Shown here piece by piece: positions 38,938-43,361 of a DNA stretch of 64,000 nt. The notes beneath the pieces are model-generated. The model made no database searches, was not told the origin of the DNA, and saw nothing but the letters and a program-made list of their open reading frames with translations. The DNA lies in assembly GCF_050920415.1 (NCBI RefSeq), contig NZ_CP169309.1; one strand, given 5' to 3'. The stretch's first letter is position 1, and every line of letters begins with the position of its first letter. The position numbers and the translations under genes are program-made. The stretch is from Escherichia coli. GTDB taxonomy: Bacteria; Pseudomonadota; Gammaproteobacteria; Enterobacterales; Enterobacteriaceae.

Positions 38938-39000
38938 ACGCTTACTCATCAGAAATTTGGTATGCTTTAATTAAACCAGTGTCGCTGATGTGTAAGCGTT
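38938..39000 (+). repeat. Conserved 3-prime hairpin element, copy 1
   Basis: ACGCTTACTCATCAG …about 35 nt… CTGATGTGTAAGCGT imperfect inverted repeat about 60 bp after the stop of the paralog-1 gene; near-identical copy at 43298..43361. Confidence 0.55.
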
Positions 39001-39348
39001 GACGTTGGGAGGCGATTAAATGGTTATACCACTCCTACGCCTTTTCCAGACGGCGTATAAGAGTGCAACATGTTGAGTTTTCCGAGCGAATGGTGCATTT
39101 TACTAACCGAGCCATTTGAAACAACCAACGCAATAAAAAAGACTGGAATAATAAGCCTGTATTTATTATTCATCGCAATCGCACTCTACGGTTTTATCCT
39201 GCAGAAATGAGACTACTTCCAGCGGTTGTGGATTATCCCTGGGCGATAGTCATAGTCTGGTGTCAGGATTCACAAATGACCTGTTACCTGACATGGATAT
39301 AAACACAACATAGAGTGCGGTAGTTAATCTGAATCATCTATTTTTCGG

Positions 39349-40536
39349 CTACACAGCACAAAACAACATTATTGATTCTTTATAAGAGAGAATCTCTCCA
39401 TTATTTTTATATAAATCATTATTAAGAAAATCCAGAAGCTCTTGCCTTACACTATAAATATTGACTTTTTGGTCAACCAACGACAGTAATATATCCTTGA
39501 TACCTTTTAATTTCATATTTCTATCAGATATTGTATTAAAAGTGAAGATGATATTACGTTTATTACAACTGGAGAACCAATATTTTAGAGTATTATTCGT
39601 CCACTTTGTTGGTGTCTTAATTAGTTGCGCTGTTGTTGTTTTTACATTGTTAAATGTAGAACCGCTAAAATTTGTCCCGACGCACGAAATGAAATTCATC
39701 TCTGAATTGTCAAAATTGCAATTCTTTATCTCACACATATCAAGGTTAACATCATGAAATGTCGAATATTTCATGTTTGCATGTGAAAATAAACATGCAA
39801 TAAACGTTATATATTGCAACCTGGCATTACAAAAAGATTTATTTTTAAAATCAAAACAAAAGGTTTTTTTTATTTTGAAATTGTTATTATATATGCAATG
39901 TAAAGAAATCATGTTTTTTATTAACTGATAACACCATTGTGATGATTCTGGTAATTCATAGGGATGTAAATGGATGTTTTCATCGAATATAACCTGTGAG
40001 TTATGGTTGTTTATTGAAGATATATGGAAGCTATCATTTGTTAAAGCTATGGTTGTGCTAAAATTATGGTGGTGATCAGCGCTCATGAAATCAAATGTAA
40101 CAATGTCGTTGTTTTCTTTCTTTTCTTTGTGATATGCGTTTAAAAAAGAAATATTTTCGATCTGTTCATCAGTTAATGTCAATGGCATTTCGTCATCAAA
40201 GAAAGCGTAATCGGCATTTGGGACTGGAATATTTTCAATTGAGCATAGTTTTAATAAAAAAATATGAAAACAATGGAACTTATTTTTGTCAATAAGAGAA
40301 CTTAATCTCTGTTGTATCTTCTGTAGTTGTCCTTTGGGAAGTAAATGCTGTAAATTTGAAAAAGAGCCATCTAAAACATATTTGTATGTAAAAAGGTCCT
40401 CTCTCTGACCAGTTATCAAAAAATCGTCAGGTATTTTAGAAAAACGATTGATATGACATAAATATTCCATTTGCTCCATGTCTATATACTTATGGGGAAC
40501 TGCATAGTTTGGTGGAGTGCCAATAAGATTTTCCAT
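39349..40536 (-). CDS. Pentapeptide-repeat protein, paralog 3 (shorter); function unknown
   Basis: 395 aa AT-rich ORF with pentapeptide periodicity (VNLDM/CEIKN/CNFDN/SEMNF/ISCVG/TNFSG/STFNN). Confidence 0.5.
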   Translation of the reverse strand: MENLIGTPPNYAVPHKYIDMEQMEYLCHINRFSKIPDDFLITGQREDLFTYKYVLDGSFSNLQHLLPKGQLQKIQQRLSSLIDKNKFHCFHIFLLKLCSIENIPVPNADYAFFDDEMPLTLTDEQIENISFLNAYHKEKKENNDIVTFDFMSADHHHNFSTTIALTNDSFHISSINNHNSQVIFDENIHLHPYELPESSQWCYQLIKNMISLHCIYNNNFKIKKTFCFDFKNKSFCNARLQYITFIACLFSHANMKYSTFHDVNLDMCEIKNCNFDNSEMNFISCVGTNFSGSTFNNVKTTTAQLIKTPTKWTNNTLKYWFSSCNKRNIIFTFNTISDRNMKLKGIKDILLSLVDQKVNIYSVRQELLDFLNNDLYKNNGEILSYKESIMLFCAV

Positions 40537-40833
40537 AAATCACCTTGGTAACATATTATAAAATCTATTTATTCTAACATTGACAATATAACCAGCTATA
40601 AAAAATCGCTCATTTTCAGATATTGCGGTTTACCTGAGGGATGATTCGTTATGCCTAAAAATTGGGAATCCAGGGTAAACACCCTGGATTAAATCGGGGG
40701 AAATGAGCTATTTTTTATAGTCTTCACTAGTAATATAAGTAACACTTGTTGCTAACCTGGCTAGCGGTAGTGTTAATTAACAATCTAGATGTCGTTATTT
40801 TTAAACACCCTAATATTGCACACCGGAGGATTT

Positions 40834-43239
40834 ATGGTTGCTAAATTAAGATCAGATGTTCTTATAAATGCTAATCCCTTTTCAGAGGTGAAAAATGAGA
40901 AGCATAAGCATAACGGATATTCTGACAAGGTTACTTTAGATATTAATAATAAGAAATACGATGTAAATTTTAAGGATATTGAAAATATTCTGGATGGTAA
41001 TGGGGCATTATTTAAAAAACGTACACTGTGGGAGTTTATTCTCGATCTTTTTCCCGGATCGCATATTAAACAAGTTAAAAGCTTAATTTACGAATTTGTG
41101 ACAAAAAATGATAATAAAGCGGAGATGTTCAAGAATATTAAATCTCTGGCCAAAGTAGAAGAACAATGGCGATTTAGTACTACTACAGATTTTACCACAA
41201 ATGAAAATAATGAAGTGGTTGTGTGTAGATCTTTTAATCTCTACACGGGGGAGAGTGTAAATGAGGCCGATAAGCATCAAGTTTTTTCTGAAAGATTCAC
41301 TCTTGATAACTATCTTGATGATTTACATTTTGATAATTCTCCCATGAAGAGATTAAAGTTTTCTGATAATGCTGTAAAACTTACGACGCTTATTAAAAAT
41401 AAAATTCCTGTTTTTGATACAACTATCAATTTAACTTCGTTGCCTAAAGATGTATTAAATTCATTAAAATATTGTAGTTTTAAAAATGTAACTTTTTCAG
41501 GAAATATAGAAACTCCGACCCTTGAAGGCCCAGTTTTTGAAAATTGTTATTTCGAAGATTGTAAGTTCAACAACATACATTTTTATGATCCTAATGAAAA
41601 AACTGCAGAGTCAGGAAATGAAAAATCAATAATAGGTATGTTTAAAGGTTGTTTTATTTCTAAATGCGAAATAAATCATTATAGTTGTGAGACGTCTCAA
41701 GTCTACACTGTTAAACAACCCGTCAATATCCAAGAAAAATTAGGGGCTTATCTCTTTATGCAGTCTTTTGTTCAAGACTGTACAATTCAGGGAGGTAGTT
41801 GTCCTGGATCGAGTATACTTCTGAGTCATTTTTATAACTGTGATATCACAGGACTTGAAGCTCCTGGAATGAAATTTTTGGCAAACTCATTCAACAAGTC
41901 TAATAATAATTACATCAGGGGGAGGGATCATGGGCTAGTATTTAATAATTGTACTTTGAACTATATTAAAATAAACAGTGGTCTTGGTGAAGCTGGTTCA
42001 GGTAAATATATGTTTAACCCCATTGAGTATTTTTCTGAATGCATTGAAAGAAGATCGAGAACTCTTAAGTTAGATGATAATTTTATTAAATGTGCAGACA
42101 ATATTAATAAAGGTATTAACTCTTCATATAGCAATGAAAATACAGAGAATAATAACGTTTTCTTTAAAAATAGTCGTTTGCGCGGGGCGGAACTGGGCTA
42201 TTGTTACAGAGAGGACAGACTCGAAGGCTGTTCTATCGATTCTGCTACAATTTATTCACAAGGTAGTCTTACCGATAAAAAATACATTTATATGAATATA
42301 GACGGAGCTATAAGTAAAGAACAAATACCAAATTTCATAAGTCAGGCAGATGCTCTATATAAAGACATAGTGGAACTTAGAAAATCCTTGCCAAATACTC
42401 GGCTAATATATGAAAAAGCATTTGCAGAATTACAGTCGTTTTTGTCCGCACTCTATAATGAAAAAGGATCGTTTAAAGAGGAATTTTCTTTTGATATTGA
42501 AAAAGTTAATTTTTTTATTTTCAAAGATATGCATGGTAGGGCACAACATATCATTAACAATATGATAGGAAGTGACAGAATTAACTTTGTTGAATCTGTC
42601 ATAAAAGAAATAATTTCGCAGTCAAATGCACAAGAAGATCCTAAATATTCAGAAGGATTTATCCGAAAAGAAAGGCAAGAGTCTCATAACCAATTTGATA
42701 GAAATTTAAATTTTAAATTTAAAGATCTTGTCCCCCTATTTGACGATGTTGATATAGACAACATTAAAGCGCTAAAAAATCAACTAGAAAAAATAAAATC
42801 TTTTAAAGAATTTTACGACTCAGCACTCAATAATTTTGCTTTCGATTTTCAAAATCTAGCAGGTATATTTAAAATTAACAAGGAAAGTTTAATCCAATAT
42901 TATCAGGTAGTAAAAGAGTCCAATGAGGGTTACGAGGACATATTGCAAAAAATTAACGAATTAACAAATGATCATAATAAAATTGTGAAAGAGAAAGCAC
43001 AACTAGTTAGTGAAAACAAAGATAATTTGACGCGTAATGATATACAAAGAAAATTAAATAACTTTAAGATTGATATTGATAAAATAGATGATGAAATACG
43101 AACTTACCAGGATATTGTTCAAAATTATAGTCGGGAGAAAAAATATAAAAAGTATAAAAAACTCAGTGAAATAATCTTGAATATTATTACATGGTTCGAT
43201 AAATATCCCGATATTGTGAAAAATATAACCCAGGCTTAG
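40834..43239 (+). CDS. Large pentapeptide-repeat (beta-helix) protein, paralog 2; function unknown, possibly secreted-effector-like
   Basis: GGAGG RBS before ATG GTT at 40834 (tracked ORF starts at 40789); N-terminal block and repeat core clearly homologous to the ORF at 36381; coiled-coil-like K/E-rich C-terminus. Confidence 0.6.
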   Translation: MVAKLRSDVLINANPFSEVKNEKHKHNGYSDKVTLDINNKKYDVNFKDIENILDGNGALFKKRTLWEFILDLFPGSHIKQVKSLIYEFVTKNDNKAEMFKNIKSLAKVEEQWRFSTTTDFTTNENNEVVVCRSFNLYTGESVNEADKHQVFSERFTLDNYLDDLHFDNSPMKRLKFSDNAVKLTTLIKNKIPVFDTTINLTSLPKDVLNSLKYCSFKNVTFSGNIETPTLEGPVFENCYFEDCKFNNIHFYDPNEKTAESGNEKSIIGMFKGCFISKCEINHYSCETSQVYTVKQPVNIQEKLGAYLFMQSFVQDCTIQGGSCPGSSILLSHFYNCDITGLEAPGMKFLANSFNKSNNNYIRGRDHGLVFNNCTLNYIKINSGLGEAGSGKYMFNPIEYFSECIERRSRTLKLDDNFIKCADNINKGINSSYSNENTENNNVFFKNSRLRGAELGYCYREDRLEGCSIDSATIYSQGSLTDKKYIYMNIDGAISKEQIPNFISQADALYKDIVELRKSLPNTRLIYEKAFAELQSFLSALYNEKGSFKEEFSFDIEKVNFFIFKDMHGRAQHIINNMIGSDRINFVESVIKEIISQSNAQEDPKYSEGFIRKERQESHNQFDRNLNFKFKDLVPLFDDVDIDNIKALKNQLEKIKSFKEFYDSALNNFAFDFQNLAGIFKINKESLIQYYQVVKESNEGYEDILQKINELTNDHNKIVKEKAQLVSENKDNLTRNDIQRKLNNFKIDIDKIDDEIRTYQDIVQNYSREKKYKKYKKLSEIILNIITWFDKYPDIVKNITQA

Positions 43240-43297
43240 CTAAGCAGAGAGTGATTGACTGGACGAATAACGACATAAATTTTTGAAAGGGAAACAT

Positions 43298-43361
43298 ACG
43301 CTTACTCATCAGACACTTGGTAGTCTTTATCTCAAACCAGCGTGACTGATGTGTAAGCGTT
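43298..43361 (+). repeat. Conserved 3-prime hairpin element, copy 2
   Basis: Same ACGCTTACTCATCAG…CTGATGTGTAAGCGT element after the paralog-2 gene, ending 14 bp before the yieH stop codon. Confidence 0.55.

Follow-up and report, generated by a model that had tools for sequence, protein, structure and literature searches.

The stem-loops at the 3' ends of Rho-terminated or read-through mRNAs, and REP stabilisers such as the malE-malF REP, are extragenic, have no U-tract and follow soon after the stop codon. Exonucleases reportedly trim transcripts back to such a hairpin, as Dar and Sorek are said to have described in 2018. Intrinsic and bidirectional terminators consist of one strong hairpin between convergent genes, and the RNase III retroregulation hairpin of lambda, sib, is a long imperfect helix downstream of int, the gene it regulates. 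Imperfect palindromes are furthermore present between genes in the form of REP/BIME, ERIC (IRU) and MITE elements, and as the attC sites (57-141 bp) located after each gene of an integron array.

The window, i.e. the whole 64-kb stretch of E. coli DNA analysed here, carries the phoU-yieH effector island with the genes espY5, espX3 (minus strand) and espY4. Two copies of a hairpin, referred to as A and B, were found in this island together with the following features.

36214-36269: module upstream of espY5, consisting of a terminator-like hairpin CCAGGGT..ACCCTA(GG) with its T-run on the minus strand and a 29-nt motif AAATGAGCGATTTTTTACAG
36381-38879, plus strand: espY5-type type III effector gene, 832 aa, 'type III effector protein' in RefSeq
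38936-39001, plus strand: hairpin copy A, arms at 38938-38952 (ACGCTTACTCATCAG) and 38985-38999 (the near-complement CTGATGTGTAAGCGT)
39016-39056, minus strand: yieH relic, piece 1, stop codon and last 13 codons
39057-39125, minus strand: yieH relic, piece 2, codons 106-128 (VVSNGSVSKMHHSLGKLNMLHSY)
39126-39236, minus strand: cbrC relic, nt 38-148 of K-12 cbrC
39349-40536, minus strand: espX3, 395-aa pentapeptide-repeat protein, ECs4654/4655 EspX3' in O157
40596-40726: module upstream of espY4, hairpin at 40667-40690 and motif at 40701-40726
40834-43239, plus strand: espY4, 801 aa
43297-43361, plus strand: hairpin copy B, arms at 43298-43312 (ACGCTTACTCATCAG) and 43346-43360 (CTGATGTGTAAGCGT)
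43376-44041, minus strand: yieH, 6-phosphogluconate phosphatase (NCBIfam NF007854, 438 bits)

The locus tags of espY5, espX3 and espY4 have been mapped (PMC5931665), and in O157 these genes are expressed and co-induced by sulfamethoxazole-trimethoprim (PMC5931665; PMC4048457). The espY5 gene is intact in the window; in O157 it is the pseudogene EspY5' (ECs4657). EspY5 and EspY4 show 33% amino acid identity, and the espY4 gene present here is a rare allele with about 60% amino acid identity to the common EspY4. Among NCBIfam models there is none for EspY proteins. The espX3 gene is transcribed toward hairpin A, which lies 350 nt past its stop codon, and yieH is convergent with espY4. The module upstream of espY5 is paralogous to 40667-40726, and an inverted copy of the motif is located at 40596-40616, upstream of espX3. 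A small ORF 3' of hairpin A (GGGAGG-N7-ATG, 18 codons from 39020) was dropped because its start varies, being conserved neither in copy B nor in several copy A alleles.

The hairpin pair announced in a preliminary description of this DNA is real, with both arms found at both sites; its true ends, 38999 and 43360, lie one base short of those given there. In both copies the outer stem comprises 15 positions with 14 pairs and one mismatch, close to the 14 to 15 bp proposed earlier, the arms being identical and the mismatch a conserved T.T (U.U in RNA; 38946/38991 in copy A). An inner stem of 7-8 bp closes the loop. This inner stem is UUGGU/ACCAG in copy A, where the loop has 13 nt and two extra pairs (A-U, G.U) can lengthen the stem to 38936-39001. 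In copy B it is lengthened by CAC/GUG relative to copy A and closes a loop of 14 nt. The distance from stop codon to hairpin, put at about 60 bp before, is 58 nt for both effector genes (stops end at 38879 and 43239), which is the sense-strand position of a 3'-end protective stem-loop.

Folded as plus-strand RNA, copies A and B reach -27.4 and -30.0 kcal/mol (z -3.7 and -4.4); the minus-strand values are -22.0 and -29.3 kcal/mol. A covariance model scored copy A with 91 bits on the plus strand vs 44 on the minus strand, and copy B with 85.6 vs 42.9 bits. No fold downstream of either effector gene is more stable than the hairpin there, and a terminator scan detected no other terminator-like site after either gene. 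The plus-strand tails following the stem (UGACGUUGGGAGG and UAAAGUUCGGAGC; also UGACGUUG and UAAAGUUC) are without the U-tract that an intrinsic terminator would have on this strand. The scan called neither copy on either strand, the loop being too large for it. Tails and scan thus agree with the earlier view that the plus strand carries no canonical intrinsic terminator. On the minus strand the stem of copy A is followed by CUUUUCGU, in some alleles CUUUUUGU, with a CUUUU(U) run, and that of copy B by AUGUUUCC or, in O157, CUAUUCCC; the better U-run of the element thus lies on this strand, at copy A, and that at copy B is weak.

The hairpin was detected in 1108 of 5426 complete E. coli genomes, with at most two copies each and always at the phoU-yieH locus; O157 genomes carry two copies only. 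Within the 64 kb of the window, no further site matches an arm at up to 2 mismatches; allowing 3 mismatches gives 6 matches, shuffles yielding 1.4 on average and at most 5. The covariance model found no additional copy in the 122 kb searched, and searches of phages and plasmids found none. A scan of 100,044 species representatives for exact arms, which would miss diverged ones, returned only two contigs, both from a MAG labelled Collinsella. These contigs carry sequence of the E. coli locus and presumably represent contamination. Neither copy gave a gathering-level match in Rfam, the sole sub-threshold match being mir-590 (21.9 bits vs a threshold of 65). Neither arm sequence was found in any paper in the literature search, and these loci are absent from the Sakai small-gene supplements.

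The genome search proposed in the preliminary description therefore argues against a widespread REP or IS family. REP/BIME elements would be expected in hundreds of dispersed copies, and the unit of 62-66 nt with ACGCTTACTCATCAG arms does not resemble the REP consensus (GTAG head, about 35-40 nt). A true REP in the window, at 35955-35997, has other matches and is dissimilar to the hairpin. A hairpin common to all espY genes was rejected, too: espY1 and espY2 of Sakai carry a different, GC-rich hairpin. The proposed link to the EspY genes holds insofar as the hairpin belongs to the espY-yieH junction, but not to the EspY gene family as such. Homology to the hairpin between yieH and cbrB of K-12 was also dismissed, the alignment being no better than shuffles (p = 0.03 to 0.75); the covariance model did not match the K-12 hairpin.

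What followed copy A had been missed before: similarity between the copies runs about 20 nt beyond the 3' arm (BLAST, 81.9% over 83 nt) and is succeeded by a yieH pseudogene relic. Piece 1 of this relic has 23/41 nt identical (local alignment vs shuffles, p = 0.036 and 0.002), and its stop codon lies 16 nt from the hairpin, compared to 15 nt for intact yieH and hairpin B. Piece 2 matches in 19/23 amino acids (tblastn, E = 8e-11) and 54/69 nt of the yieH gene in the window. Residues 129-208 are deleted between the two pieces. The cbrC relic (blastn vs the K-12 locus, 74.8% over 111 nt, E = 2e-16) is joined directly to yieH codon 106, and judged by these alignments the joint is the junction left by a duplication or insertion.

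Hairpin A is followed by dead yieH and a cbrC fragment, and the duplicated block therefore comprised the effector gene, the hairpin and a stretch into yieH. The yieH relic, the cbrC junction, the upstream motif and hairpin common to both effector genes and the equal 58-nt spacing show that the two hairpin copies exist through duplication of such a block. It had been suggested that a module was duplicated together with the genes; the duplication is supported, but the block is larger than thought and takes in part of the convergent yieH. Since the block includes part of yieH, the hairpin belongs to the espY-yieH junction. In the ancestral state an espY effector gene was probably convergent with yieH, with the hairpin between them. 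A block of effector promoter region, gene, 58-nt 3' spacer, hairpin and yieH to codon 106 was then copied or inserted into cbrC, giving the order espY5 - hairpin A - dead yieH/cbrC fragments - espX3 - espY4 - hairpin B - yieH.

Within the arms copies A and B show 0/30 differences, compared to 10/33 between the arms (Fisher p = 0.001) and 15/69 in the dead yieH piece beside copy A (p = 0.004). These values bear out the earlier impression that stems are kept while loops drift, and the arms of copy A are kept although the adjoining minus-strand gene is dead. Variation was further followed in 21 distinct alleles from 101 locus copies; of 37 metagenome contigs fetched by an anchor outside the hairpin, 36 gave a copy A. 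Read as plus strand, 96.7% of cells are in pairs and a change of G-C to G.U keeps 7 variable pairs intact; for the minus strand the figure is 89.4%, with 7 pairs lost to A.C. Almost all stem changes across the 21 alleles are of this G-C to G.U type on the plus strand, and a compensatory change from one Watson-Crick pair to another was not seen on this strand. The selection on structure suggested earlier is thus supported by conservation and by the one-sided G-C to G.U changes, and the proposed covariance check showed pairing to be mostly kept, but double compensatory substitutions were not among the plus-strand changes.

The strand bias amounts to no more than 7 pairs vs 2 (one-sided sign test, about 0.09), and C>T is mildly favoured on the plus strand even in the flanks (27 C/T sites vs 21 A/G). 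Of the 13 alleles folded, 12 were more stable as plus-strand RNA, the mean advantage being 3.8 kcal/mol; every one had a sense-strand energy between -25 and -33 kcal/mol, and minus-strand stability went down to -18.5 kcal/mol in some alleles.

We regard it as an even question whether the hairpin is an ordinary RNA stem-loop, situated between convergent genes, that protects the 3' end or is associated with termination, and this is the reading we favour. The espY5 and espY4 mRNAs would each end in the hairpin, folded into an interrupted helix of about 24 bp. The helix has no U-tract, so it is not a classical intrinsic terminator; its role may rather be to define and protect the mRNA 3' end, whereby 3'-5' exonucleases would shorten run-on transcripts down to the stem once Rho or a collision has halted them. 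Since both copies are placed between convergent units (espY5/espX3 and espY4/yieH), they may also limit minus-strand read-through, in copy A with the help of the CUUUU(U) that follows the stem. It seems improbable to us that the hairpin serves specifically to control the EspY4/EspY5 effector mRNAs after transcription. Such an element might be an RNase III or ProQ-type 3'-UTR site setting effector dosage, or might couple effector dosage to convergent yieH/espX3 transcription, and selection would keep the hairpin in both paralogues while their coding sequences diverge.

Read on the other strand, the hairpin might be the terminator of yieH (copy B), copied passively and now ending the espX3 transcript (copy A), with the effector genes as bystanders. 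We consider this unlikely. The distance of 15-16 nt to the stop codons of yieH and of the relic fits a minus-strand terminator, as does the strong, non-homologous hairpin that K-12 yieH has at the same place. The U-run behind copy A points in the same direction, together with one inner pair (columns 19-50) fitting the minus strand better by changing from C-G to G.U there. It is the functional yieH copy, however, that has the poorer tail, and a minus-strand helix would suffer from the A.C mismatches arising at the 7 variable pairs and from the loss of stability in some alleles; the scan, as mentioned above, called no terminator on either strand. Rather unlikely, too, is that the palindrome is a functionless passenger of the block duplication, its arms being identical by chance, gene conversion or low local mutation. 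The overall identity between the copies, 82%, is after all close to the 78% of the dead yieH piece, and arm polymorphism of copy A within E. coli (3/30) is not significantly below that of the flanks (about 0.2 per site). Moreover, one strain with an IS2 inside the 5' arm of hairpin B is evidently viable. A uniform rate would nevertheless hardly produce the contrast between the arms and both the loop region and the dead yieH piece, a conversion tract covering both arms would homogenise the intervening 33 nt as well, and nearly all stem changes preserve pairing.

We give very little credence to the inverted repeat being a DNA site (attC-like, MITE ends or att) or a protein-binding palindrome that assembled the effector array. 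A hairpin does follow each effector 'cassette', the espX3-espY4 segment is flanked by direct repeats of hairpin and yieH end, and conserved flanks enclose hypervariable effector alleles. The locus lacks an integrase or transposase among its genes, however, and neither of the attC core motifs, RYYYAAC and GTTRRRY, occurs at either end. MITE or IS origin was rejected because the flanks (spacer, yieH 3' end and relic) are homologous, which argues against independent insertions, and because no direct repeat abuts the arms as a target-site duplication would. An integrase-type att site at the yieH 3' end was considered from a drop in identity between K-12 and the window about 57 nt before the stop codon. 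Island yieH turned out to be about 80% identical to K-12 from end to end, with no more than a short patch of conservation and no att-like breakpoint, and the idea was given up. The only single-copy genome examined arose by IS5-mediated deletion and not by recombination between the repeats. Substitutions creating G.T are tolerated, contrary to what a DNA duplex or cruciform would require, and phages and plasmids carry no copies. The hairpin is neither mobile nor a new class of element.

The finding accounts for the espY5-espX3-espY4 array beside yieH by a block duplication or insertion that left scars of yieH and cbrC, and adds a short cis element, so far without annotation, in which the arms are conserved better than the effector genes preceding them. 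If the hairpin indeed sets effector mRNA stability, it would be a lever on how strongly non-LEE type III effectors, present in about one fifth of E. coli genomes, O157:H7 included, are expressed. The overall importance is modest.

Compared to known systems, the hairpin resembles the 3'-end stem-loops and REP stabilisers in being extragenic, devoid of a U-tract and close to the stop codon, and also in its position between convergent genes and in conserved arms with a loop free to vary. Unlike REP-type stabilisers it is limited to two copies at one locus in only about 20% of E. coli genomes, and with about 65 nt and an interrupted helix of about 24 bp it is longer than a REP unit. REP/BIME, ERIC (IRU) and MITEs share with it the imperfect intergenic palindrome, but not the low copy number, the homologous flanks or the lack of a family sequence and target duplication. 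With integron attC sites it has in common the imperfect palindrome after each gene of an array; unlike in integrons there are no R''/R' core sites, integron integrase or attI, and the pseudogene sequence flanking the hairpin is common to both copies. Similar to bidirectional terminators is the presence of one strong hairpin where two genes converge, with an A-run upstream on the plus strand serving as minus-strand U-run at copy A. Intrinsic terminators differ by their U-tract, which is absent here on the plus strand and weak on the minus strand at copy B, and by a far smaller stem and loop. The long imperfect helix after the effector genes finally recalls lambda sib downstream of int, and its length fits an RNase III substrate (at least 20 bp with an internal mismatch), this likeness being architectural only.

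In this stretch of the E. coli chromosome an espY5-espX3-espY4 effector array lies between phoU and yieH, at the position where K-12 (NC_000913.3) carries bglGFBH-yieLK-cbrCB. The genes, and remnants of yieH and cbrC between them, are the following:

36381-38879, plus strand: type III effector gene espY5, after phoU
39016-39056, minus strand: yieH stop codon and about 13 decayed C-terminal codons, stop-to-hairpin spacing approximately as in the real yieH
39057-39125, minus strand: yieH codons 106-128, 19/23 residues kept (E = 8e-11), 54/69 nt identical
39126-39236, minus strand: cbrC nt 38-148, directly abutting the yieH codons, 74.8% identity (E = 2e-16)
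39349-40536, minus strand: espX3, a 395-aa pentapeptide-repeat gene
40834-43239, plus strand: espY4, the second type III effector gene
43376-44041, minus strand: yieH, followed by adeP

According to RefSeq and the literature, EspY5' is ECs4657, EspX3' is ECs4654/4655 and EspY4 is ECs4653 (PMC5931665). The genes espY5 and espX3 are pseudogenes in O157 and intact in the window.

The pair of hairpins noticed in the preliminary description is confirmed, with ends shifted by one base. The arms ACGCTTACTCATCAG and CTGATGTGTAAGCGT occur after espY5 (hairpin A, 38938-38952 and 38985-38999) and after espY4 (hairpin B, 43298-43312 and 43346-43360), and no further arm match with up to 2 mismatches was found elsewhere in the 64-kb window. 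Both copies begin 58 nt after the stop codon (gene ends at 38879 and 43239). In both RNAs the outer stem comprises 9+6 bp interrupted by a single U.U mismatch, followed by a small internal loop, an inner stem of 7-8 bp and an apical loop of 13-14 nt. Plus-strand folding energies are -27.4 kcal/mol for hairpin A (z -3.7) and -30.0 kcal/mol for hairpin B (z -4.4); the reverse strands fold, too (-22.0 and -29.3 kcal/mol, respectively). No other strong structure lies between the convergent units espY5/espX3 (copy A) or espY4/yieH (copy B). As described before, neither is an obvious intrinsic terminator: no plus-strand U-tract follows, and a consensus terminator scan called neither copy.

Among 5426 complete E. 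coli genomes, 1108 had a match to a 111-nt query over hairpin B. Every match was at this locus on the chromosome, and both the median and the maximum number per genome were 2; a copy-A query gave the same picture. The element is thus not part of a widespread REP or IS family, the outcome that the preliminary description had named as a refutation. Phage and plasmid collections contained no copy (the single "plasmid" match is a 4.9-Mb chromosome), and an exact-arm scan of one genome per species (100,044 species) returned only two contigs of one MAG carrying the E. coli locus itself. Rfam gave no gathering-level match on the hairpins, and below threshold only noise. When a covariance model built from 13 hairpin alleles was run on the window, on the K-12 locus and on the espY1/espY2 region of Sakai, it recovered only the two known copies. 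We found no report of the element in the searchable literature, and it does not belong to a described family.

A general EspY feature is ruled out, as espY1 and espY2 of Sakai (NC_002695.2) are followed by a different, GC-rich hairpin (6214-6253 and about 23328-23352 of that locus). These two are similar to each other with the core GGGGCTGGAAYGCCCC. The espY1 hairpin has a perfect stem of 17 bp, and the 80-nt segment folded with it reaches -40.6 kcal/mol. A strong hairpin of 8+7 bp is also present in K-12, in the yieH-cbrB gap (9449-9502 of the K-12 locus, -32 kcal/mol). It starts about 12 nt downstream of the yieH stop codon and includes the cbrB Shine-Dalgarno sequence in its 3' arm; no homology between it and the island hairpin was detected. 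Elsewhere in the window, Rfam matches at gathering level lie at 20902-21059, 52923-53116, 55042-55172 and 57710-57906 (STnc410; C4 antisense RNA with a1/b1 target; EFASI; STnc400 adjoining retron msr RNA). The last four matches point to a prophage, satellite or retron region between 52 and 58 kb.

The similarity of the two hairpin regions extends past the 3' arm. Behind hairpin A, the stretch 39016-39236 (minus strand) is an unannotated pseudogene mosaic, the scar left when the tandem effector array was built. In a lineage keeping yieL-yieK (L021), the island begins within the last 52 nt of cbrC. The 58-nt spacers of the two copies are barely alignable, and EspY5 and EspY4 share only 33% protein identity. 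Judged from these remains, the simplest history would start with one espY gene and yieH in convergent orientation, separated by the hairpin. A tandem duplication, or an insertion from a homologous locus, would then have placed in cbrC a block extending from the promoter region to yieH codon 106; deletions would have come later. The duplicated block being espY-hairpin-yieH, the hairpin belongs to the espY-yieH junction. The suggestion of a module duplicated together with its gene therefore stands, except that the block was larger and reached into yieH. A genuine REP-like element lies directly after phoU (35955-35997), with matching copies at 34354-34396 and in the pst region of K-12. There the homology of the window to the yieK-side island version (L021) starts, and the element marks the deletion junction that removed bgl-yieLK.

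The effector alleles diverge extremely within E. coli. The window carries a rare EspY4 allele, whose protein is about 60% identical to the common one (60% against the island versions L003 and L004). Nucleotide identity between alleles is 55-65% inside the effector genes (3' halves), is back at 95% about 30 nt upstream of hairpin A and is 90-98% from hairpin A through the espX3 segment (against L003/L004). Island strains and K-12 have yieH genes that are only about 80% identical. We consider the duplication scar and this divergence of the effector genes between conserved flanks the more interesting by-products of our analysis.

All three effector genes share the upstream motif AAATGAGCGATTTTTTAYAG (36214-36269, 40596-40616 and 40667-40726; 26-29 nt long in the espY copies). 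It lies 107-140 nt upstream of the espY start codons, and in inverted orientation 60-80 nt upstream of espX3. In both espY copies it is preceded by a terminator-like hairpin (CCAGGGT..ACCCTGG, T-run on the minus strand), and the spacing of hairpin and motif to the start codon is equal in the two genes. The motif may be a promoter or regulator site common to the genes. In O157 the effector genes are co-induced by sulfamethoxazole-trimethoprim (PMC5931665).

Selection on structure, proposed earlier, has modest support. Between hairpins A and B 0/30 arm positions differ, compared to 10/33 between the arms (Fisher p = 0.001) and 15/69 in the neighbouring remnant of yieH (p = 0.004 against arms). 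Our allele set comprises 21 different hairpin sequences drawn from 101 locus copies (complete genomes, Logan, NCBI contigs and metagenome contigs); 37 metagenome contigs were retrieved via an anchor outside the hairpin, 36 of them yielding copy A. Standard pairs fill 96.7% of cells on the plus strand, where seven variable pairs change on one side only and remain paired (G-C to G.U) and two have unpaired cells. On the minus strand the value is 89.4%; seven variable pairs break as A.C and one inner pair goes from C-G to G.U. The plus-strand RNA is more stable in 12 of 13 alleles, the minus strand falling to -18.5 kcal/mol in one. The bias of 7 versus 2 pairs is by itself not significant, and the flanks have a mild excess of C/T over A/G polymorphisms (27 vs 21). 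Within E. coli the arms are polymorphic at about 0.10 per site and the flanks at about 0.2, a difference that is not significant. Most plus-strand variation keeps pairing; no compensatory change from one Watson-Crick pair to another occurs on this strand among the 21 alleles. There is real but modest evidence that the RNA structure may be under constraint, leaning to the effector-sense strand.

Hairpin B of a metagenome contig (QZLU01000215.1) carries T>C at the penultimate pair (A-U to A.C), the only stem change seen to break a plus-strand pair; as a singleton it could be a sequencing error. In NZ_CP067307.1 (about 6670-8000 of its locus) an IS2 with a 5-bp target duplication (CGCTT) sits within the 5' arm of hairpin B, so that espY4 is cut off from its hairpin, in effect a natural mutant. 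In NZ_CP169399, identical to the window over 36000-44200, IS2 interrupts espY5 instead.

The main rival to an effector mRNA element is a weak minus-strand or bidirectional terminator. This is possible, since the minus strand after copy A has a fair U-run, CUUUU(U)G; the copy serving the functional yieH, hairpin B, has a poorer tail. A role at DNA level (att, attC or MITE) is unlikely, given that there is no recombinase at the locus, both copies have homologous flanks, core motifs are absent, substitutions creating G.T are tolerated and the one single-copy genome examined goes back to a deletion by IS5.

Judged by its position, structure and constraint, the hairpin is best read as a putative mRNA 3'-end stem-loop. 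Effector transcripts would run into or past it and be stopped by Rho or converging polymerases; exonucleases would trim them back to the helix, and the helix left at the 3' end would stabilise the effector mRNA. The island hairpin would thereby work like known 3' protective or termination-associated hairpins.
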